Of a DNA stretch of 64,000 nucleotides, positions 2,582-44,583 are shown in pieces. Each line of letters begins with the position of its first letter. Positions within the stretch are counted from its first letter, which is position 1. The translations under genes and the position numbers were made by a program. The stretch lies in assembly GCF_003334785.1 (NCBI RefSeq), contig NZ_QOWV01000002.1. One strand, 5' to 3'. This DNA comes from Escherichia coli. Lineage in GTDB: Bacteria; Pseudomonadota; Gammaproteobacteria; Enterobacterales; Enterobacteriaceae. The notes below the pieces were generated by a model, which saw only the letters and a program-made list of their open reading frames with translations, had not been told where the DNA came from and searched no databases.

Positions 2582-4521
2582 TGCCAGAAATTGGTAACGG
2601 ACTGCTGTGCCTGGCGCTGGGAATTGCGCTGCTGCTGTCCGTGTATCCGCTATGGGGCGTGGCGCGCGGAGATGCGCGCATGATGGCGTCTTCCCGCTTG
2701 TTTGCCTGGCTGCTGTTTATGTCTGTGGCTGGCGCATTTCTGGTGCTGGTCAATGCTTTCGTGGTCAACGACTTCACCGTCACCTATGTTGCCAGCAACT
2801 CCAATACCCAGCTTCCGGTGTGGTATCGCGTGGCGGCTACCTGGGGCGCGCATGAAGGCTCGCTACTGCTGTGGGTGCTGCTGATGAGCGGCTGGACCTT
2901 TGCGGTGGCGATTTTTAGTCAGCGTATTCCGCTGGATATTGTGGCCCGTGTACTGGCGATAATGGGGATGGTCAGTGTCGGCTTTTTGCTGTTCATTCTC
3001 TTTACCTCTAACCCGTTCTCTCGCACGTTGCCGAACTTCCCGATTGAAGGTCGCGATCTTAACCCGCTATTGCAGGATCCGGGGCTGATCTTCCATCCGC
3101 CTCTGCTTTATATGGGGTACGTGGGTTTCTCGGTGGCGTTTGCTTTTGCCATTGCTTCTTTGCTGAGCGGGCGTCTGGACAGCACTTATGCGCGTTTTAC
3201 TCGTCCGTGGACGCTGGCAGCGTGGATCTTCCTGACGCTCGGCATCGTGCTCGGTTCCGCATGGGCCTATTACGAACTCGGCTGGGGTGGCTGGTGGTTC
3301 TGGGATCCGGTAGAAAACGCCTCGTTTATGCCGTGGCTGGTGGGGACTGCGCTGATGCACTCACTGGCGGTCACTGAACAACGCGCCAGCTTCAAAGCGT
3401 GGACATTACTGCTGGCAATCAGTGCCTTCTCGTTGTGTCTGTTGGGGACTTTCCTCGTGCGTTCCGGCGTGCTGGTATCGGTACACGCGTTTGCGTCTGA
3501 TCCGGCGCGCGGTATGTTTATCCTCGCCTTTATGGTGCTGGTGATTGGCGGTTCGCTGCTGCTGTTTGCCGCGCGTGGACACAAAGTTCGCTCACGCGTA
3601 AACAATGCGCTGTGGTCGCGGGAATCTTTGCTGTTAGCGAACAATGTTTTGCTGGTCGCTGCGATGCTGGTGGTGTTGCTGGGGACGCTGCTGCCGTTGG
3701 TGCATAAGCAACTGGGACTGGGCAGTATTTCGATTGGCGAACCGTTCTTCAACACCATGTTTACCTGGCTGATGGTGCCGTTTGCGCTACTGCTTGGTGT
3801 CGGTCCTCTGGTGCGCTGGGGGCGGGATCGCCCGCGTAAGATCCGCAATTTATTGATTATCGCCTTCATCTCTACGCTGGTGCTGTCGCTGCTGTTGCCG
3901 TGGCTGTTCGAAAGCAAAGTTGTGGCGATGACGGTGCTCGGCCTGGCAATGGCCTGCTGGATTGCGGTGCTGGCAATTGCGGAAGCTGCGCTACGTATTT
4001 CACGCGGCACGAAAACCACCTTCAGTTATTGGGGGATGGTGGCGGCTCACCTTGGGCTGGCAGTGACAATTGTTGGCATTGCCTTTAGCCAGAACTATAG
4101 CGTTGAGCGTGATGTGCGCATGAAGTCCGGCGATAGCGTCGATATTCATGAATATCGCTTCACCTTCCGTGATGTCAAAGAGGTGACTGGCCCGAACTGG
4201 CGTGGCGGTGTGGCGACTATCGGCGTAACGCGCGATGGCAAGCCGGAAACGGTGCTGTATGCGGAAAAACGTTATTACAACACTGCCGGGTCGATGATGA
4301 CCGAAGCGGCAATTGACGGCGGCATCACGCGTGACCTGTACGCGGCCCTCGGTGAAGAGCTGGAAAACGGCGCGTGGGCCGTGCGTCTTTACTACAAACC
4401 ATTTGTTCGCTGGATTTGGGCGGGCGGGCTGATGATGGCGTTGGGCGGACTGCTGTGTCTGTTTGATCCTCGCTATCGTAAGCGCGTGAGTCCGCAAAAA
4501 ACTGCGCCGGAGGCCGTATGA
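2578..4521 (+). CDS. ccmF: Cytochrome c-type biogenesis protein CcmF (heme lyase component)
   Basis: 647-aa polytopic membrane [23 protein letters not shown]...; ATGA overlap with ccmE. Confidence 0.95.
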
Positions 4522-34872: not shown

Positions 34873-36564
34873 ATGAAAACGCTGCTGATTATTGACGCTA
34901 ATCTCGGTCAGGCACGCGCCTATATGGCGAAGACCCTGCTGGGCGCGGCGGCGCGAAAAGCAAAACTGGAAATCATCGACAATCCGAACGACGCTGAAAT
35001 GGCGATTGTTCTCGGTGATTCCATCCCGAACGACAGCGCGCTGAACGGTAAAAATGTCTGGCTGGGCGATATTTCCCGGGCAGTTGCGCACCCTGAGCTG
35101 TTCCTGAGTGAAGCCAAAGGCCATGCGAAACCTTACACTGCGCCGGTCGCTGCGACAGCACCAGTTGCCGCCAGCGGTCCGAAACGCGTAGTTGCGGTGA
35201 CTGCTTGCCCGACTGGCGTAGCACACACCTTTATGGCGGCTGAAGCCATTGAAACCGAAGCGAAAAAACGTGGCTGGTGGGTGAAAGTTGAAACCCGTGG
35301 TTCTGTTGGCGCGGGTAATGCAATCACTCCCGAAGAAGTCGCAGCAGCGGATCTGGTGATTGTGGCGGCAGATATCGAAGTGGATCTGGCGAAATTTGCT
35401 GGTAAACCGATGTATCGTACCTCTACCGGTCTGGCGCTGAAGAAAACCGCGCAGGAACTGGATAAAGCGGTTGCTGAAGCAACGCCGTATGAACCGGCGG
35501 GCAAAGCTCAAACGGCGACCACTGAAAGTAAGAAAGAGAGTGCAGGCGCATACCGTCACTTGCTGACGGGCGTTTCTTACATGCTGCCGATGGTCGTTGC
35601 AGGTGGTCTGTGTATCGCGCTTTCTTTTGCTTTTGGTATCGAAGCGTTTAAAGAGCCGGGTACGTTGGCTGCGGCGCTGATGCAGATTGGTGGTGGTTCA
35701 GCCTTTGCGCTGATGGTGCCGGTACTGGCAGGTTATATTGCCTTTTCCATTGCCGATCGTCCGGGCCTCACTCCGGGTCTGATTGGCGGTATGCTGGCGG
35801 TCAGCACCGGTTCTGGCTTCATTGGTGGTATTATTGCGGGCTTCCTGGCTGGTTACATTGCGAAGTTAATCAGTACGCAATTGAAACTGCCACAGAGTAT
35901 GGAGGCGCTGAAACCGATCCTGATCATTCCGCTAATTTCCAGTCTGGTGGTCGGTCTGGCGATGATCTACCTGATCGGTAAACCAGTTGCTGGCATTCTC
36001 GAAGGGCTGACTCACTGGCTGCAGACCATGGGGACTGCGAATGCGGTTCTGCTGGGGGCGATCCTCGGTGGCATGATGTGTACTGACATGGGCGGTCCGG
36101 TAAACAAAGCAGCGTACGCATTCGGTGTGGGTCTGCTGAGTACTCAAACCTATGGCCCGATGGCGGCGATTATGGCGGCAGGTATGGTGCCACCGCTGGC
36201 AATGGGTCTGGCAACAATGGTGGCGCGTCGCAAATTCGACAAAGCGCAGCAGGAAGGTGGCAAAGCCGCTCTGGTATTGGGACTGTGCTTCATTTCGGAA
36301 GGTGCAATTCCGTTTGCTGCTCGTGATCCGATGCGTGTGCTGCCGTGCTGTATCGTGGGTGGGGCGCTGACTGGCGCAATCTCAATGGCGATTGGTGCGA
36401 AACTGATGGCACCGCACGGTGGTCTGTTTGTTCTGCTGATCCCTGGCGCTATTACGCCGGTATTGGGTTACCTGGTAGCAATTATTGCCGGTACGCTGGT
36501 GGCGGGTTTGGCCTATGCCTTCCTGAAACGTCCGGAAGTGGACGCAGTAGCGAAAGCAGCGTAA
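34873..36564 (+). CDS. fruA: Fructose PTS EIIB'BC component FruA
   Basis: 563 aa; IIB domain with CPTGVAHT motif plus polytopic IIC domain. Confidence 0.95.
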   Translation: MKTLLIIDANLGQARAYMAKTLLGAAARKAKLEIIDNPNDAEMAIVLGDSIPNDSALNGKNVWLGDISRAVAHPELFLSEAKGHAKPYTAPVAATAPVAASGPKRVVAVTACPTGVAHTFMAAEAIETEAKKRGWWVKVETRGSVGAGNAITPEEVAAADLVIVAADIEVDLAKFAGKPMYRTSTGLALKKTAQELDKAVAEATPYEPAGKAQTATTESKKESAGAYRHLLTGVSYMLPMVVAGGLCIALSFAFGIEAFKEPGTLAAALMQIGGGSAFALMVPVLAGYIAFSIADRPGLTPGLIGGMLAVSTGSGFIGGIIAGFLAGYIAKLISTQLKLPQSMEALKPILIIPLISSLVVGLAMIYLIGKPVAGILEGLTHWLQTMGTANAVLLGAILGGMMCTDMGGPVNKAAYAFGVGLLSTQTYGPMAAIMAAGMVPPLAMGLATMVARRKFDKAQQEGGKAALVLGLCFISEGAIPFAARDPMRVLPCCIVGGALTGAISMAIGAKLMAPHGGLFVLLIPGAITPVLGYLVAIIAGTLVAGLAYAFLKRPEVDAVAKAA

Positions 36565-36574
36565 TAAAAGGTGT

Positions 36575-36605
36575 GTTACAGGGCAGAAATTTCCTGTCCT
36601 GTAAC
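36575..36605 (+). terminator. Hairpin downstream of fruA (weak T-tract)
   Basis: gttacagggcag...ctgtcctgtaac, roughly 11-bp imperfect stem; followed by attt only. Confidence 0.35.
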
Positions 36606-36986
36606 ATTTGATGAGCGCAAAGAGAATGACCGGTTTGTGAATGTAATTTTATGAATTTAAATGGTTTTATCTTTCAGTAGAAACTTCAAACGTTCATCAA
36701 ACACTCAGGTTATTTCCTCAAGGGCAGATTATTTTCTGCCCTTTTTTATTGTTCTGTTCTGTGCATCCCGTCACAAATTCCTCGCTTTTGTAATTCAGGC
36801 ATTTAATCGCATTTTGTGAGCCTGCTCAAATCTGCCCATTTTGCCTCTCTGGCGGTAATTTACTTTACGTAAAACATGCATACTATGAGCACATGTTTAA
36901 ATATGAACACATGTTTAAACCGTCTTTGCAGTATCTATATTCTTGTGGATTGACAGGGTTGGTAATTTTTTACCAGAGGACGTGCT

Positions 36987-37928
36987 ATGCGCGAAAAGGA
37001 TTATGTCGTAATTATAGGTTCGGCGAATATTGATGTCGCCGGATATTCACATGAATCATTAAATTATGCGGATTCAAATCCAGGTAAAATAAAATTTACG
37101 CCTGGTGGAGTAGGGCGCAATATTGCACAAAACCTGGCGTTGCTGGGTAACAAAGCCTGGCTACTGAGCGCCGTAGGCAGTGATTTTTATGGTCAATCGC
37201 TGCTAACGCAAACCAATCAATCTGGCGTTTATGTCGATAAATGCCTGATTGTGCCGGGAGAAAATACGTCGAGTTATTTATCATTACTCGATAATACCGG
37301 TGAAATGCTGGTTGCTATAAATGACATGAATATTAGCAACGCTATTACAGCTGAATATCTCGCACAGCACGGTGAATTTATTCAGAGGGCAAAGGTCATT
37401 GTCGCGGACTGTAATATCAGTGAAGAGGCACTGGCATGGATTCTGGATAATGCCGCCAACGTACCCGTATTTGTCGATCCGGTTTCGGCATGGAAATGTG
37501 TCAAAGTGCGCGACCGTCTAAATCAGATCCACACTCTCAAGCCAAACCGCCTTGAAGCGGAAACCCTGAGTGGGATTGCGCTGTCAGGGCGTGAAGATGT
37601 GGCAAAAGTTGCTGCCTGGTTCCATCAACATGGCCTGAACCGACTGGTATTGAGCATGGGCGGCGACGGCGTTTATTACAGCGATATCAGCGGTGAAAGT
37701 GGCTGGTCTGCGCCGATCAAAACCAATGTTATTAATGTTACCGGAGCGGGCGATGCCATGATGGCGGGACTTGCTTCGTGTTGGGTAGACGGAATGCCGT
37801 TTGCCGAATCTGTTCGTTTCGCACAGGGATGTTCGTCAATGGCGCTCTCCTGTGAATACACCAATAACCCCGATTTATCGATTGCCAACGTTATATCGTT
37901 AGTGGAGAACGCAGAATGTCTGAATTAA
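36987..37928 (+). CDS. psuK: Pseudouridine kinase PsuK (YeiC), PfkB family
   Basis: 313 aa, MREKDYVVIIGSANIDVAG...GGVGRNIAQNLALLG... Confidence 0.93.
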   Translation: MREKDYVVIIGSANIDVAGYSHESLNYADSNPGKIKFTPGGVGRNIAQNLALLGNKAWLLSAVGSDFYGQSLLTQTNQSGVYVDKCLIVPGENTSSYLSLLDNTGEMLVAINDMNISNAITAEYLAQHGEFIQRAKVIVADCNISEEALAWILDNAANVPVFVDPVSAWKCVKVRDRLNQIHTLKPNRLEAETLSGIALSGREDVAKVAAWFHQHGLNRLVLSMGGDGVYYSDISGESGWSAPIKTNVINVTGAGDAMMAGLASCWVDGMPFAESVRFAQGCSSMALSCEYTNNPDLSIANVISLVENAECLN

Positions 37929-38854
37929 AAATTTCCCCTGAATTATTACAAATTTCCCCGGAAGTGCAGGACGCTTTAAAAAACAAAAAACCGGTTGTGG
38001 CGCTGGAATCGACCATTATTTCTCACGGGATGCCGTTCCCACAAAATGCCCAGACCGCAATTGAAGTTGAAGAAACTATTCGTAAACAGGGCGCTGTACC
38101 TGCCACGATCGCCATTATTGGCGGCGTGATGAAAGTGGGGTTAAGCAAAGAAGAAATTGAATTACTGGGTCGTGAAGGGCATAACGTGACCAAAGTTAGT
38201 CGTCGCGATTTACCTTTTGTTGTTGCCGCCGGAAAAAATGGCGCAACCACTGTGGCTTCAACGATGATTATTGCGGCGCTTGCCGGAATTAAAGTATTTG
38301 CCACCGGGGGAATTGGTGGTGTGCATCGCGGGGCGGAACATACCTTCGATATTTCTGCCGATTTGCAAGAACTGGCAAATACTAATGTCACCGTTGTTTG
38401 TGCCGGGGCGAAATCTATTCTCGATTTAGGATTAACCACTGAGTATTTAGAAACCTTCGGTGTGCCGTTAATTGGCTATCAGACTAAAGCGCTGCCTGCG
38501 TTTTTCTGCCGCACCAGCCCGTTTGACGTCAGCATTCGTCTCGACAGCGCCAGCGAAATTGCCCGTGCAATGGCGGTGAAATGGCAAAGCGGTCTGAACG
38601 GTGGCCTCGTGGTAGCGAACCCGATCCCGGAACAGTTTGCTATGCCGGAACACACTATCAATGCGGCGATCGATCAGGCGGTAGCTGAAGCTGAAGCTCA
38701 GGGAGTCATTGGTAAAGAAAGTACGCCATTCCTGCTGGCGCGCGTTGCTGAACTGACCGGCGGTGACAGCCTGAAATCCAACATCCAGCTGGTGTTCAAC
38801 AACGCCATTCTGGCGAGCGAAATTGCCAAAGAATATCAGCGTCTCGCGGGTTAA
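37916..38854 (+). CDS. psuG: Pseudouridine-5'-phosphate glycosidase PsuG (YeiN)
   Basis: 312 aa, MSELKISPELLQISPEVQDALKNKKPVVALESTIISHGMP...; 13-nt overlap with psuK. Confidence 0.93.
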   Translation: MSELKISPELLQISPEVQDALKNKKPVVALESTIISHGMPFPQNAQTAIEVEETIRKQGAVPATIAIIGGVMKVGLSKEEIELLGREGHNVTKVSRRDLPFVVAAGKNGATTVASTMIIAALAGIKVFATGGIGGVHRGAEHTFDISADLQELANTNVTVVCAGAKSILDLGLTTEYLETFGVPLIGYQTKALPAFFCRTSPFDVSIRLDSASEIARAMAVKWQSGLNGGLVVANPIPEQFAMPEHTINAAIDQAVAEAEAQGVIGKESTPFLLARVAELTGGDSLKSNIQLVFNNAILASEIAKEYQRLAG

Positions 38855-38947
38855 TTTCTGACGGGCAGAAAGCCGTCGCCCGTACTCATCAAGCATACCA
38901 AAACCTGGCGCTGACGCCGGGTTTACCGGCATGAAGGGAAAATCATT

Positions 38948-40198
38948 ATGGATATAATGAGAAGTGTTGTGGGGATGGTGGTGTTACTGGCAATAGCATT
39001 TCTGTTGTCAGTGAATAAAAAGAGCATCAGTTTGCGCACGGTTGGAGCCGCACTGCTGCTGCAAATCGCTATTGGTGGCATCATGCTCTACTTCCCACCG
39101 GGAAAATGGGCAGTAGAACAGGCGGCATTAGGCGTTCATAAAGTGATGTCTTACAGTGATGCCGGTAGCGCCTTCATTTTTGGTTCGCTGGTTGGGCCGA
39201 AAATGGATGTCCTGTTTGACGGTGCGGGTTTTATCTTCGCCTTTCGCGTACTTCCGGCGATTATTTTCGTTACTGCGCTCATCAGTCTGCTGTACTACAT
39301 TGGCGTGATGGGGCTGCTGATTCGCATCCTTGGCAGCATTTTCCAGAAAGCCCTCAACATCAGCAAAATCGAATCTTTTGTTGCGGTTACTACTATTTTC
39401 CTCGGGCAAAATGAGATCCCGGCGATCGTTAAACCGTTTATCGATCGCATGAATCGCAACGAGTTGTTTACCGCAATTTGTAGCGGGATGGCGTCCATTG
39501 CTGGTTCGATGATGATTGGTTATGCCGGAATGGGCGTACCAATTGACTACCTGTTAGCGGCATCGCTGATGGCGATCCCTGGCGGGATTTTGTTTGCACG
39601 TATTCTTAGCCCGGCAACCGAGCCTTCGCAGGTCACATTTGAAAATCTGTCGTTCAGCGAAACGCCGCCAAAAAGCTTTATCGAAGCGGCGGCGAGCGGT
39701 GCGATGACCGGGCTAAAAATCGCCGCTGGTGTGGCGACGGTGGTAATGGCGTTTGTCGCAATTATTGCGCTGATCAACGGCATTATCGGCGGAATTGGCG
39801 GCTGGTTTGGTTTCGCCAATGCCTCTCTGGAAAGTATTTTTGGCTATGTGCTGGCACCGCTGGCGTGGATCATGGGTGTGGACTGGAGTGATGCCAATCT
39901 TGCGGGTAGCCTGATTGGGCAGAAACTGGCGATTAACGAATTCGTCGCTTACCTGAGTTTCTCCCCATACCTGCAAACGGGCGGCACGCTGGAAGTGAAA
40001 ACCATTGCGATTATCTCCTTTGCGCTTTGTGGTTTTGCTAACTTTGGTTCTATCGGTGTTGTCGTTGGCGCATTTTCGGCTATTTCGCCAAAACGCGCGC
40101 CGGAAATCGCCCAGCTTGGTTTACGGGCGCTGGCAGCAGCAACGCTTTCCAACCTGATGAGTGCGACTATTGCCGGGTTCTTTATTGGTCTGGCGTAA
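38948..40198 (+). CDS. psuT: NupC-family nucleoside transporter PsuT (YeiM)
   Basis: 416 aa, close paralog of the nupX product at 42138-43388. Confidence 0.92.
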   Translation: MDIMRSVVGMVVLLAIAFLLSVNKKSISLRTVGAALLLQIAIGGIMLYFPPGKWAVEQAALGVHKVMSYSDAGSAFIFGSLVGPKMDVLFDGAGFIFAFRVLPAIIFVTALISLLYYIGVMGLLIRILGSIFQKALNISKIESFVAVTTIFLGQNEIPAIVKPFIDRMNRNELFTAICSGMASIAGSMMIGYAGMGVPIDYLLAASLMAIPGGILFARILSPATEPSQVTFENLSFSETPPKSFIEAAASGAMTGLKIAAGVATVVMAFVAIIALINGIIGGIGGWFGFANASLESIFGYVLAPLAWIMGVDWSDANLAGSLIGQKLAINEFVAYLSFSPYLQTGGTLEVKTIAIISFALCGFANFGSIGVVVGAFSAISPKRAPEIAQLGLRALAAATLSNLMSATIAGFFIGLA

Positions 40199-40207
40199 TG
40201 CTCGATT

Positions 40208-40246
40208 TGTAGACCGGATAAAACGTATTAAGCGTTGCATCCGGCA
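40208..40246. repeat. REP element between psuT and yeiL
   Basis: gtagaccggataaaacgtattaagcgttgcatccggcaa. Confidence 0.7.
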
Positions 40247-40268
40247 ATCGCGCTATTGAAAATAATTT

Positions 40269-40928
40269 TTACTGCATCATCCCGGAGAATTTATTCTCCG
40301 GGTCCATCTCCAGCGCCAGTCCTGACAACTGCTTTCTGTTTTTAATGAGATATCCTTTCTTGCTTTTAATTAATAAACCGTCGTGAATGAACTGCGCGAG
40401 AACATATAAAAGATGTCGATAAGAAACGCCTAAATACTCTGCCGCTTGCGTATGCTTTTCGTGATAAAGATCACCTTCCTGCGAGAGTAATATAAATGCT
40501 GCCAGGCGATTCACTAACGGAAATGATTGATTCTGAGTTAAAGAAACAATATTACGATAATTTTTATGACTTAAGGTGACGCAGAGTTTTCGTAAAAATA
40601 GCGTGTCGTTTAATAACAGCGGACGGTAATGTTTCATAGGGAGCGCAAGGCACCAACACTCTTCAATAGCCTGCACCGCACGCGGTTCATGGTCTTTATC
40701 GATTAACTCAATCTCGCCAATAAAACAGGGGGCGGCAAAGAAATCGATCAGCGACACGCGACCATTAGCTAGCGTGGCGTAAAGCCTGGCGCGGCCTCGC
40801 GTCAGGTAAAACAGCCAGGACGGCTGTTGCCCTTCCTGCACAATGTAGTCACGCGCTAAAAAATGAAACAGCCGCGTATCGGCTGAAACATCCGTTAAAA
40901 AGCAATCCTTAAACGCGGATTCACTCAT
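40269..40928 (-). CDS. yeiL: Crp/Fnr-family transcriptional regulator YeiL
   Basis: 219 aa from the ATG at 40928 ([11 protein letters not shown]...); cNMP-binding-like domain plus C-terminal HTH; track ORF starts 13 codons upstream. Confidence 0.88.
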
Positions 40929-41096
40929 CAATTGCTGCTTAAGATCATTATTGTGGATTTCTTTCACGATGTTTATCCGCTATGAGATTTCTCATATTTA
41001 GCATACGTACGCTGTTGTTAAGATTCAATCATCGGCCCGGTCGAATTTTCTTTGCTGTAGAAAAAATAACGCAACTGGAAACAGAGGAAATAAACA

Positions 41097-42038
41097 ATGG
41101 AAAAGAGAAAAATTATTCTGGATTGTGATCCGGGTCATGATGATGCTATTGCTATAATGATGGCGGCGAAACATCCGGCAATAGATTTATTAGGCATCAC
41201 TATTGTAGCGGGTAATCAGACGCTTGATAAAACATTAATTAATGGCCTGAATGTTTGCCAGAAACTGGAGATTAATGTTCCGGTTTATGCGGGGATGCCG
41301 CAGCCCATTATGCGTCAACAAATCGTTGCCGATAATATTCACGGTGAAACCGGACTGGATGGCCCGGTATTCGAGCCGCTGACCCGCCAGGCAGAAAGCA
41401 CTCATGCGGTGAAATATATCATTGATACCCTGATGGCAAGCGATGGCGATATCACTCTGGTGCCGGTTGGTCCGCTTTCAAATATCGCGGTGGCAATGCG
41501 TATGCAACCCGCGATCCTGCCCAAAATCCGTGAAATTGTGCTAATGGGCGGCGCTTACGGTACAGGCAACTTCACGCCATCTGCCGAGTTCAACATCTTT
41601 GCCGACCCGGAAGCCGCACGCGTAGTGTTCACCTCCGGCGTTCCATTAGTGATGATGGGCCTCGATCTCACCAACCAGACCGTTTGCACCCCGGACGTGA
41701 TTGCTCGGATGGAAAGGGCAGGCGGCCCCGCCGGAGAGCTGTTCAGCGACATCATGAACTTCACTCTCAAAACGCAGTTCGAAAACTACGGCCTTGCTGG
41801 CGGCCCGGTGCACGACGCCACCTGCATCGGTTATCTGATTAACCCTGATGGCATTAAAACCCAGGAGATGTACGTCGAAGTGGACGTCAACAGTGGCCCT
41901 TGCTATGGGCGTACCGTCTGCGACGAGCTGGGCGTTCTTGGCAAGCCCGCCAATACCAAAGTCGGCATCACTATTGATACAGACTGGTTCTGGGGATTAG
42001 TCGAAGAGTGCGTGCGCGGCTACATCAAAACCCATTAA
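41097..42038 (+). CDS. rihB: Pyrimidine-specific ribonucleoside hydrolase RihB (YeiK)
   Basis: 313 aa with IU-NH family N-terminal motif [11 protein letters not shown]. Confidence 0.95.
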
Positions 42039-42137
42039 GTGTTGATAACAAGCCGGGCCGGTATCGCAAGATGCAGGCCTGGCTATTTCTGATGGGCAGA
42101 AAGCCGTCGCCCAATATGACATGAAGAGATAATCACT

Positions 42138-43388
42138 ATGGATGTCATGAGAAGTGTTCTGGGAATGGTGGTATTGCTGACGATTGCGTTTTTACTGTCA
42201 GTAAACAAGAAGAAGATCAGCCTGCGTACCGTTGGCGCGGCGTTAGTGTTACAGGTCGTGATTGGCGGCATTATGCTTTGGTTACCGCCAGGGCGTTGGG
42301 TCGCTGAAAAAGTCGCTTTTGGCGTGCATAAAGTGATGGCGTACAGCGACGCGGGTAGCGCATTTATCTTCGGTTCTCTGGTCGGACCGAAAATGGATAC
42401 CTTATTTGATGGTGCAGGATTTATCTTTGGTTTCAGGGTGTTACCGGCAATTATCTTCGTCACCGCGCTGGTGAGTATTCTCTACTACATCGGTGTGATG
42501 GGGATTTTAATTCGAATTCTCGGCGGTATCTTCCAGAAAGCATTAAATATCAGCAAGATCGAGTCATTCGTCGCGGTCACCACCATTTTCCTCGGGCAAA
42601 ACGAAATTCCGGCAATCGTCAAACCCTTTATCGATCGTCTGAATCGCAATGAATTATTTACAGCGATTTGTAGTGGCATGGCCTCGATTGCTGGTTCGAC
42701 AATGATTGGTTACGCCGCACTGGGCGTGCCTGTGGAATATCTGCTGGCGGCATCATTAATGGCGATCCCTGGCGGGATCTTGTTTGCCCGCCTGTTAAGC
42801 CCGGCAACGGAATCTTCGCAGGTTTCCTTTAATAACCTCTCTTTCACCGAAACACCGCCAAAAAGCATTATTGAAGCCGCTGCGACAGGGGCAATGACCG
42901 GGCTGAAAATCGCCGCAGGTGTGGCAACAGTGGTGATGGCATTTGTTGCAATAATTGCGTTGATTAACGGTATTATCGGCGGCGTTGGTGGCTGGTTTGG
43001 TTTTGAACATGCCTCGCTGGAGTCCATTTTAGGTTACCTGCTGGCTCCACTGGCGTGGGTGATGGGTGTGGACTGGAGTGATGCGAATCTTGCCGGGAGT
43101 TTGATTGGACAGAAACTGGCAATAAATGAATTTGTCGCTTATCTCAATTTCTCACCCTATCTGCAAACGGCTGGCACTCTCGATGCTAAAACTGTGGCGA
43201 TTATTTCCTTCGCGTTGTGCGGTTTCGCTAACTTTGGTTCTATCGGGGTGGTGGTGGGGGCGTTTTCTGCGGTTGCGCCACACCGTGCGCCGGAAATCGC
43301 CCAGCTTGGTTTACGGGCGCTGGCGGCGGCGACGCTTTCCAACTTGATGAGTGCGACCATTGCCGGGTTCTTTATTGGTTTAGCTTGA
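42138..43388 (+). CDS. nupX: NupC-family nucleoside permease NupX (YeiJ)
   Basis: 416 aa, paralog of PsuT. Confidence 0.92.
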   Translation: MDVMRSVLGMVVLLTIAFLLSVNKKKISLRTVGAALVLQVVIGGIMLWLPPGRWVAEKVAFGVHKVMAYSDAGSAFIFGSLVGPKMDTLFDGAGFIFGFRVLPAIIFVTALVSILYYIGVMGILIRILGGIFQKALNISKIESFVAVTTIFLGQNEIPAIVKPFIDRLNRNELFTAICSGMASIAGSTMIGYAALGVPVEYLLAASLMAIPGGILFARLLSPATESSQVSFNNLSFTETPPKSIIEAAATGAMTGLKIAAGVATVVMAFVAIIALINGIIGGVGGWFGFEHASLESILGYLLAPLAWVMGVDWSDANLAGSLIGQKLAINEFVAYLNFSPYLQTAGTLDAKTVAIISFALCGFANFGSIGVVVGAFSAVAPHRAPEIAQLGLRALAAATLSNLMSATIAGFFIGLA

Positions 43389-43395
43389 GTGTCAT

Positions 43396-43488
43396 TGCCT
43401 GATGCGCAAGCTTATCAGGCCTACATTTACTTGCTGAAATTGCCTGATTTGTAGGCCGGATAAGACGCGTTAAGCGTCGCATCCGGCA
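43396..43488. repeat. BIME: two inverted REP elements downstream of nupX and yeiI
   Basis: gcctgatgcgcaagcttatcaggcctac and gtaggccggataagacgcgttaagcgtcgcatccggca. Confidence 0.8.
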
Positions 43489-43494
43489 ACATTG

Positions 43495-44583
43495 TTACAC
43501 CATTGGCACTAATGAAAGCGCGTTATCGGCAGACAGGGTAGGGTTGTTTAAGCTGCCGCTGGCGCGCGAAATTGCCGCGCAGGCTACCGCAAAACGGGCG
43601 CTGTCGCGGAAACTGTATCCTTCAAGAAAGCTATATACCAGGCCCGCCATAAAACCATCGTCAGCACCAAAACTGTCTACTGTCGTATGCGCTGGCGCGG
43701 TCAGCAAAAATTGTTCTCCATCCTTTTCGCTGCAATAAACTGACTCATCGGGCAAATAAACAAACAGTTGCTGAACACCTTGCTGATGCAATGCATTCAC
43801 TGCGGTATTACGGTCAGCATCGCTGGTGATCGCCTGTCCCCATAAAATTTCCAGCTCCGGTAAAGTGGGTTTCAGGGTGTGAATATGCACCAGCCAGTGT
43901 TTGATTTTGCCCGCTTTGAATTCTGAAACGGTATCGACAAACACCGGGATTTCATCAGCGAGGGTAAAGACCCATTCCAGCGCCTCGGCTGTCAGGTTGC
44001 AATCAGCCAGTACCACGCCCGCATGACGAAGTAAATCGCGCGACCCGTTCAGTAGTTGCGGTGTCAACTGTTCCAGCAGATGGGTATCGTTAATCGCCAG
44101 CACGGTTTGATCGTCTCGATTGGCAATTGCCAGATACGTCGATGTGCTTTGACCATGCAAACGAACGCAGCCGGAGACATTCACGCCGGCACGGCGCGTT
44201 TCTTCCAGGAGCATTTCGCCATAAAAGTCATCGCCAATCACTGAAAGCAAATGGACGTCACGGCCTAACAGCGCCAGATTGTGGGCGATGTTGCGTCCCA
44301 CGCCGCCCGCTGAGCAATGAATTGTACCGGGATGAGAAGCCGATTGCGGGTAACGGATATCCGCCATCCCGCGAATATCCATATTGATTGTCCCCACCAC
44401 TACGCAGTATTCCTGCTCGGTGAGAATGTAACCTTTGCCTTTAATCCGGCCTTTGCGCATTAAATCCATAATATGCGCCGCAACGCGCGAACGGCTGATT
44501 TGCAGCATGTCCGCAATTTCGTTCTGCTGAATCAGCGGGTTACGCCGTAAAATTGCAAGGATCTCCTTTTCCCGGTTATTCAT
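43495..44583 (-). CDS. yeiI: HTH-domain-fused PfkB-family kinase YeiI (substrate unknown)
   Basis: 362 aa; N-terminal winged-helix-like segment (MNNREKEILAILRRNPLIQQNEIADMLQISRSRVAAHIMDL), then a PfkB kinase domain with GGVGRNIAHNLALLG, paralogous to PsuK. Confidence 0.9.
   Translation of the reverse strand: MNNREKEILAILRRNPLIQQNEIADMLQISRSRVAAHIMDLMRKGRIKGKGYILTEQEYCVVVGTINMDIRGMADIRYPQSASHPGTIHCSAGGVGRNIAHNLALLGRDVHLLSVIGDDFYGEMLLEETRRAGVNVSGCVRLHGQSTSTYLAIANRDDQTVLAINDTHLLEQLTPQLLNGSRDLLRHAGVVLADCNLTAEALEWVFTLADEIPVFVDTVSEFKAGKIKHWLVHIHTLKPTLPELEILWGQAITSDADRNTAVNALHQQGVQQLFVYLPDESVYCSEKDGEQFLLTAPAHTTVDSFGADDGFMAGLVYSFLEGYSFRDSARFAVACAAISRASGSLNNPTLSADNALSLVPMV

Follow-up and report, generated by a model that had tools for sequence, protein, structure and literature searches.

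The intercistronic spacers upstream of the sister nucleoside-transporter genes psuT and nupX of Escherichia coli share a 27-nt motif whose core, judging from comparative sequence analysis, is a small conserved RNA hairpin (hereafter hairpin 1) kept by selection. The motif lies in a window of 64,000 nucleotides (contig NZ_QOWV01000002.1; the whole stretch of DNA analysed), which corresponds, in reverse complement, to the 2.25-2.26 Mb region of E. coli K-12 MG1655 (2296283 minus the window coordinate gives the K-12 coordinate). As far as alignment across genera can tell, hairpin 1 is the first module of an ancestral leader of ~95 nt, homologous between psuT and nupX. With its compensatory changes, fixed position in front of one gene family and slower-than-silent evolution, the element has the features of a generic structured cis-regulatory mRNA leader element, and no earlier account of it was found in Rfam, RefSeq annotation or the literature searched. 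The reading that we favour, with confidence about evenly poised, is that hairpin 1 would function as a cis-acting intercistronic hairpin tuning transporter expression, and that gene conversion within Escherichia would add to this to account for the near-identity of the two E. coli motifs.

The features of the locus are collected in Table 1. The two 27-mers are identical at 26 of 27 positions, their sole difference being C/T at 38862/42093, and the near-identical motif reported before psuT and nupX in the first-pass annotation was thus confirmed, with both positions exact. A search of the 64 kb with up to three mismatches returned just these two 27-mers, with 0 expected from shuffled sequences. 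The same annotation had considered the flanks to be otherwise unrelated, which did not hold, as the ~25 nt preceding each ATG are also homologous between psuT and nupX (CATGAAGRGAWAATCAYT) and the whole leaders became alignable once further genera were added. It had also ascribed an extra ~45 nt to the psuT leader. The length gap is real, the distance from hairpin to ATG being 66 nt in psuT and 25 nt in nupX, but it does not reflect an insertion in psuT: the segment is ancestral and was lost from E. coli nupX, because the nupX leader of K. spallanzanii and many other leaders carry it. The TTTCTG flank is Escherichia-specific and lies outside the conserved element, other genera commonly having TAAAAAC or TAACAYC in its place. 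Neither the psuG-psuT nor the rihB-nupX spacer carries any RefSeq-annotated feature, and a permissive Rfam 15 scan of positions 36500-44000 placed no family on the motif at the gathering threshold; the best overlap, isrJ at 38851-38925, reached 18.9 bits where the gathering score is 37 (E = 7.1), which is at chance level.

Table 1. Features of the psuT and nupX loci, in window coordinates.
Feature	Position	Strand	Basis or remark
psuK	36987-37928	+	gene in window
psuG	37916-38854	+	stop codon 38852-38854
27-mer, psuT side, TTTCTGACGGGCAGAAAGCCGTCGCCC	38855-38881	+	immediately 3' of psuG stop codon
TTTCTG 5' flank of psuT motif	38855-38860	+	directly after psuG stop
Hairpin 1, psuT copy	38861-38883	+	stem covariation, RNAalifold, covariance-model match 43.5 bits
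C/A-rich, G-poor single-stranded linker ACTCATCAAGCATACCAAAA	38884-38903	+	conserved block in full-leader alignments
Hairpin 2	38901-38924	+	fold, 26 distinct versions, RNAalifold 9 pairs
Ribosome-binding segment ACCGGCATGAAGGGAAAATCATT	38925-38947	+	homologous to 42115-42137 before nupX; conserved in all leaders
psuT	38948-40198	+	ATG at 38948
yeiL	between psuT and rihB	-	gene in window
rihB	41097-42038	+	gene in window
Separate strong hairpin past rihB stop, GCCGGGCC...GGCCTGGC, then TATTTCT	42052-42083	+	folds
27-mer, nupX side, TTTCTGATGGGCAGAAAGCCGTCGCCC	42086-42112	+	47 nt past rihB stop
Hairpin 1, nupX copy	42093-42113	+	covariance-model match 40.3 bits
Shortened nupX leader remainder ATATGACATGAAGAGATAATCACT	42114-42137	+	linker and hairpin 2 absent
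nupX	42138-43388	+	ATG at 42138

Several other features of the locus are recorded here in their own right. A perfect 7-bp hairpin (38943-38960, UCAUUAU-GGAU-AUAAUGA) spans the psuT start codon and pairs the first AUG region with a second in-frame AUG; it is seen in most leaders of the family and is weaker in E. coli nupX, and it could limit initiation, or the second AUG could be the start that is used. REP-type palindromes follow psuT (40212-40299) and nupX (43454-43501), with weak naRNA4/REP Rfam matches. The gene yeiI, encoding an HTH domain fused to a PfkB kinase (~360 aa) and convergent with the transporter gene, was found wherever psuK-psuG-psuT occurs (L002, L003, L084-L087, L092, L093) and was missing from genomes with only yeiL-rihB-nupX (L081, L083, L088), a distribution by which it may be proposed as a regulator of the pseudouridine operon or a partner to it.

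For the comparison, leaders were obtained by a protein-based scan of one genome per species, together with contigs encoding close homologues, and from metagenomes; 43 distinct leaders, from ~15 enterobacterial genera and metagenomes, made up the compared set. The named sources of the protein-based scan and the contigs were Escherichia, E. albertii, Citrobacter, Kluyvera, Klebsiella michiganensis, K. spallanzanii, Enterobacter/Leclercia, Buttiauxella, Salmonella, Superficieibacter, Dryocola and Entomohabitans; a metagenome scan using a start-codon-region pattern that excluded the hairpin added 53 distinct leaders. Gene order varies: some genomes have only psuKGT, some only yeiL-rihB-nupX, and others have both, in either order. 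In the genomes examined every transporter gene of the psuT/nupX clade was preceded by a homologous leader, which bears out across enteric genera the proposal of a conserved non-coding element before both paralogous transporter genes. In psuT-type leaders hairpin 1 begins 8-12 nt past the psuG stop codon, and in nupX-type leaders the stop lies 18-65 nt upstream. A covariance model built on the first 22 sequences recognised two copies only in the window (next match, 14.5 bits) and, in 0.8 Mb of enterobacterial contigs, sites solely before psuT or nupX; at 74 loci of more distant CNT transporters it gave no convincing match. At least one match was present in 5425 of 5426 E. coli genomes, with a median of two copies and at most three places per genome, a copy number on which a REP/BIME repeat was rejected. 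Six matches lie on plasmids, and some E. coli genomes have the element in three places.

Transporters 73% identical to these in Serratia, Hafnia and Klebsiella sp. BIGb0407 (L006-L009, ~3330-3500), encoded after a psuG-like gene, are preceded by a different conserved leader. It is composed of an invariant CUCCUUAAGUUUUAUCC, the same as the anti-Shine-Dalgarno end of 16S rRNA, followed by AAAUAAAAAC and a long hairpin, CCUGAAAGGUGG-N22-24-CCUUUCAGG, and may represent a separate regulatory leader that sequesters the Shine-Dalgarno sequence.

Hairpin 1 of psuT consists of a 5' arm ACGGGC (38861-38866), an 11-nt loop AGAAAGCCGTC (38867-38877) and a 3' arm GCCCGT (38878-38883), and that of nupX of the arms TGGGC (42093-42097) and GCCCA (42109-42113) around the same loop (42098-42108), so that its outer pair is U-A as opposed to C-G in psuT; the U-A outer pair is common to the nupX leaders of Salmonella, Buttiauxella and Dryocola. 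The motif region aligned without gaps in the 43 distinct sequences, among which CGGGC/GCCCG plus one outer pair forms a stem of 5-6 bp with 93.4% of cells paired. Compensatory changes (C-G to U-A, A-U to G-C and G-C to A-U) are found at pairs 12-32 (CG 29, UA 7, UG 4), 11-33 (AU 15, GC 11, GU 4) and 13-31 (GC 39, AU 3, GU 1). The covariation score of the stem, 0.255, compares with 0.166 in shuffled alignments, none of 500 of which reached 0.255, and with at most 0.155 when the 3' partners were slid by one to three columns. Many of these changes are shared by descent, and by lineage they amount to roughly five or six independent compensatory events, not dozens. Read on the + strand, the five inner pairs contain eight G-U cells and one A-C cell, and hairpin 1 is therefore interpreted as a + strand RNA in preference to a DNA palindrome or a structure of the opposite strand.

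All sequences have a loop of 11 nt (consensus A-G-N-N-N-G-C-N-G-U-C), with G18, G22, C23, G25 and U26 each conserved at 90% or more. In the nupX leaders of Leclercia/Enterobacter the loop bases have become self-complementary, resulting in an 11-pair hairpin in which the loop consensus is lost, and in the Entomohabitans psuT leader (L086, 2597-2708) hairpin 1 is swapped for an unrelated 13-bp hairpin, GCGCUGUUCCCGG...CCGGGAAACAGCGC, at the same spot; the hairpin as such is therefore kept even where its sequence has changed. Thermodynamic folding is less uniform: the two E. coli leaders folded singly give differing minimum-energy structures, the isolated E. coli hairpins exceed shuffled sequences in stability by a small margin only (z -1.8 and -1.2), and in long-context folds the probability of hairpin 1 spans 0 to 1 between species. 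Hairpin 1 was rejected as an intrinsic terminator, as it gave no match in the terminator scan and its 3' neighbour (GUACUCAU in psuT, AAUAUGAC in nupX) offers no U run directly after the stem. Within E. coli, common psuT variants alter the two outer stem pairs only to G-U (GGT, GGC), and some nupX variants break the outer stem pair (GAG...AAT; the metagenome loci L118 and L149 are among the sources of variants); these breaks suggest that constraint on the E. coli nupX copy may have been relaxed.

The first-pass annotation had drawn three mutually exclusive hairpins in the motif, of which the CGGGC/GCCCG pairing alone proved to be conserved. TTTCTG/CAGAAA was paired in 52% of cells in the 43 sequences, with a score barely above the slid-partner controls, and GACGG/CCGTC in 69%, with no covariation and with its fourth pair open in 30 of the 43; neither pairing is conserved, and both are confined to Escherichia. 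When 15 full leaders were given to RNAalifold, it returned hairpin 1 and a second, independent hairpin downstream (hairpin 2), with no alternative or long-range pairing. The leader switch or classical attenuator that had been envisaged accordingly found no supporting evidence. Covariation across enterobacterial relatives had been named as a check on the proposal, and since the stem does covary, the finding survives in a narrower form. Upstream "anti-hairpin" segments noted by eye in Buttiauxella, Entomohabitans, Superficieibacter and Escherichia were rejected as inconsistent in position and absent from most lineages. Inspection for pseudoknots revealed no complement kept across genera, either of the hairpin 1 loop in the linker, the hairpin 2 loop or the Shine-Dalgarno region, or of the hairpin 1 3' arm in the hairpin 2 5' arm. 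An upstream small open reading frame (ATGAAGGGA...) was discarded because neither its frame nor its presence is conserved, and a SECIS or recoding signal because the psuG stop varies (UAA/UGA) and nupX-type leaders lie far from a stop codon.

The consensus order of the complete leader is an A-rich flank (often TAAAAAC), hairpin 1, the linker (family consensus ATATCARRCATACCAAAAC), hairpin 2, CCUGGCAUGAAGGGAAAAUCAUU and AUG. In psuT, hairpin 2 is formed by AAA and CCTGGCG (38904-38910), the loop CTGA, and CGCCGGG (38915-38921) with TTT (38922-38924), or in RNA form AAACCUGGCG-CUGA-CGCCGGGUUU, placed between hairpin 1 and the psuT ribosome-binding site. Among its 26 distinct versions, which follow the form CCUGGC(G)-loop-(C)GCCGGG then UUU(U), the stem is almost invariant, the loop is free to vary and three to four U always follow. 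The stem is of ~ -16 kcal/mol. Hairpin 2 resembles a weak intrinsic terminator, yet it falls below the consensus of the terminator scan (at least five U in 8 nt). Hairpin 2 occurs in psuT-type leaders and in some nupX-type leaders (e.g., K. spallanzanii) and is missing from the nupX group of Salmonella, Buttiauxella, Kluyvera and E. coli. The hairpin 2 of Entomohabitans psuT has no U tract (CCCGGU-CAUGGU-ACCGGG-CGCUCG).

The linker is deleted in the E. coli nupX leader. Where this leader is shortened, the nupX leaders of another Escherichia genome (L001) and of Salmonella, Buttiauxella and Kluyvera keep ATAACGRGWTCAGACCTGRC, and the nupX leader of the window is 13 nt shorter than that of L001. 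The separate hairpin past the rihB stop can also be drawn as GCCGGGCC...GGCCUGGC, enclosing a GCAUC/GAUGC inner stem and running into UAUUUCU; TATTTCT adjoins this hairpin, and so the first, T-rich bases of the nupX motif also serve as its tail. In other genera the rihB-nupX spacer contains non-homologous hairpins at this place.

Two comparisons bear on the forces that have kept the leaders alike. Comparison of E. coli with Citrobacter or Kluyvera gives 77-82% identity for the leader and 45-49% for four-fold degenerate sites of psuT, which argues for purifying selection on the whole leader. PsuT and NupX share 88% protein identity and 79% DNA identity, and with only 47% identity at four-fold sites between the two genes, a non-coding identity of 26/27 requires selection, gene conversion or both. 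The genes 5' of the two transporters, psuG and rihB, are unrelated to each other, and the element therefore belongs with the transporter gene. In the protein tree, from which the L001 nupX branch was disregarded owing to a wrong gene start, the psuT clade stands apart from the nupX clade, so that the psuT/nupX duplication predates these genera. The motif pair of L001 matches at 25/27; the E. coli psuT motif matches that of Citrobacter psuT at 20-21/27 and the nupX motif those of Salmonella or Buttiauxella nupX at 22/27, and the psuT and nupX motifs match at 17/27 within Kluyvera and at 15/27 within Enterobacter. The core is also kept where a genus has psuT or nupX but not both (Citrobacter, E. 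albertii, Salmonella, Leclercia, Dryocola). The 26/27 identity thus probably reflects selection together with a short gene-conversion event within Escherichia, and conversion on top of selection on the core would best explain why the two copies also share the TTTCTGA flank and the variable loop bases. In the coding region, psuT and nupX share an identical run of 38 nt at gene positions 1150-1187 (window 40098-40134 and 43288-43324). It is longer than codon shuffling would lead one to expect (P = 0.017) and may be a further gene-conversion tract; third-codon-position identity is 78% over the last 30 codons.

The published tables of Adams et al. (2021; PMC7815308) list no transcription start in either spacer, the operons being weakly expressed in the conditions used, and a promoter scan of the window found no promoter-like site in either spacer; together this is weak evidence that fits co-transcription with the upstream gene. 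More broadly, the published tables of 5' and 3' ends have no entry at the motif, and the supplements of PMC7815308, PMC10954441 and PMC7213987 have none for either spacer, with both operons poorly expressed in the laboratory cultures of those studies. Two starts in the same table (PMC7815308) lie further upstream: K-12 2259533(-), at window ~36750 (+), just after the fruA terminator and 237 nt 5' of psuK, and 2255991(-), at window ~40292 (+), antisense within yeiL and ~800 nt 5' of rihB. They could mark the promoters of the operons, or else reflect pervasive initiation. In the Hfq CLASH data (PMC7213987), CpxQ-psuT and CyaR/CpxQ-nupX hybrids fall in coding regions and none at the motif; the CpxQ-psuT hybrids map to window positions 38966-39016 (psuT codons 7-23; 4 reads, -33 kcal/mol), and the data suggest sRNA control of both transporter mRNAs inside their coding regions.

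Under the favoured reading, the leader would be transcribed within the psuKG-psuT and rihB-nupX operon mRNAs, and hairpin 1 would act in cis and after initiation, setting the amount of transporter relative to the upstream enzyme. Most likely it would do so as a processing boundary or structural barrier governing decay or read-through into the transporter cistron, and where the terminator-like hairpin 2 is present the two would cooperate. Since hairpin 2 is absent from E. coli nupX, no mechanism requiring both hairpins can be general. A pure stability or barrier hairpin would have no need of a loop fixed at 11 nt or of conservation of at least 90% at five loop positions, and these conserved bases suggest that a trans-acting factor may also recognise hairpin 1. 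With the emphasis shifted to that factor, one arrives at an overlapping explanation, in which hairpin 1 is mainly a nucleoside-responsive recognition site for an RNA-binding protein or sRNA, contacted in its loop or in the C/A-rich linker, that would switch translation, decay or read-through of the transporter. Factor-binding hairpins typically show such a combination of a fixed loop, conserved loop bases and a covarying stem; the conserved linker is G-poor and single-stranded, and Hfq-dependent sRNAs touch the psuT and nupX mRNAs elsewhere (PMC7213987). Set against this, the examined loci have no linked candidate gene for an RNA-binding protein, the two interactome supplements searched contain no Hfq hybrid at the motif, and the hairpin persists in the Leclercia/Enterobacter nupX and Entomohabitans psuT leaders, in which the loop consensus is lost or the hairpin replaced, so that we regard this explanation, although the main rival, as doubtful. 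A more specific proposal, which we hold to be unlikely, is that hairpin 1 is the recognition element of an undescribed post-transcriptional regulator coupling CNT transporters to the supply of pseudouridine or pyrimidine nucleosides in Enterobacteriaceae; candidates for this role would be an RNA-binding protein, an sRNA and a very small ligand-sensing RNA working with hairpin 2.

The remaining explanations are less probable. Release of hairpin 1, linker and hairpin 2 of psuT-type leaders as a trans-acting small intra-operonic RNA, SroC-like, with a processed 5' end and a 3' end at hairpin 2, would agree with the layout of a 5' stem-loop, a conserved unpaired stretch and a G+C-rich hairpin with a U tail, and the sole Rfam hint over 38851-38925, at chance level, is itself an sRNA model (isrJ); it is quite improbable given a U tail of only 3-4 nt, the many nupX leaders that have hairpin 1 without hairpin 2, and the lack of a 3' end, start site or Hfq hybrid in the datasets searched. 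A ligand- or translation-sensing switch or attenuator toggling among the three mutually exclusive hairpins is very improbable, for the two further pairings fail as described above, RNAalifold yields no alternative structure, and hairpin 1 overlaps neither hairpin 2 nor the Shine-Dalgarno sequence and belongs to no Rfam family. All three pairings can nevertheless be drawn in Escherichia, the short distance from the psuG stop in psuT-type leaders means that a terminating ribosome could open the hairpin, and an upstream stretch pairs with the 5' half of hairpin 1 in Buttiauxella (8 bp), Entomohabitans (7 bp) and Superficieibacter (6 bp), but such complements vary in position and are absent in most lineages. 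Extremely unlikely is a DNA inverted-repeat operator, CGGGC-N11-GCCCG, for YeiL or YeiI at an internal promoter: the repeat does lie near linked regulators, with yeiL adjoining rihB-nupX and yeiI co-occurring with psuKGT, but almost all one-sided changes are compatible with G-U on the + strand (8 vs 1), the half-sites change complementarily and not identically, no promoter-like site or mapped start is nearby, and the hairpin is kept in genomes without yeiL or without an adjacent yeiI. Hardly credible, finally, is the absence of any function, the motif being a mere gene-conversion tract or duplication leftover. Conversion between the E. coli copies is likely, and the 38-nt coding run hints at it as well, but it leaves unexplained the core kept in one-gene genera, the compensatory changes and a leader far more conserved than silent sites.

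Regulation of psuT and nupX is essentially unstudied, the literature found being concerned with transport activity or engineered pseudouridine production, and the covarying leader hairpin offers an easily mutated handle on the balance between transporter and cytoplasmic enzyme within an operon. The element is also a candidate entry for RNA-family databases and illustrates, on a small scale, a regulatory sequence that accompanied a gene through its duplication and was probably homogenised afterwards by gene conversion. Being small and confined to one gene family in one bacterial family, it is of limited wider consequence unless it proves to have a specific binding factor or ligand.

Among known systems, antitermination leader hairpins, including lambda boxB, ANTAR dual hexaloop hairpins and the BglG RAT, have loops of 5-6 nt. 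The psuT/nupX element resembles them in combining a small hairpin, conserved in its loop sequence, with a terminator-like hairpin further downstream; it differs in its 11-nt loop, in having no second matching hairpin, and in that hairpin 1 does not overlap a terminator stem and has no cognate protein gene nearby. SroC is a small RNA derived from the gltI-gltJ spacer, one of the intra-operon attenuators and derived small RNAs. It shares with the leaders described here the order of the parts, in which a hairpin is followed by conserved unpaired sequence and then by a G+C hairpin with U residues, located between genes for a soluble protein and a transporter; unlike SroC, the psuT/nupX leaders have a U tail of only 3-4 nt, often lack hairpin 2 in front of nupX, and gave no RNA species in the datasets searched. 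Attenuation of the rph-pyrE type is coupled to translation of the upstream gene. Here the similarity consists in a pyrimidine-related operon and a psuT-type hairpin 8-12 nt past the upstream stop codon, and the difference in a hairpin 1 without a U tract and in nupX-type leaders whose stop lies 18-65 nt upstream. Intercistronic mRNA stem-loops, among them the REP hairpins of malE-malF, give the genes of an operon different expression levels. In contrast to REP hairpins, the psuT/nupX element is present in two copies per genome and not hundreds, travels with the downstream gene, and has a loop of fixed length with conserved bases. Similarly to the malE-malF hairpins, it is a stable hairpin between an enzyme gene and a membrane-transporter gene, and the persistence of its structure where the sequence has been replaced likens hairpin 1 to intercistronic REP hairpins.
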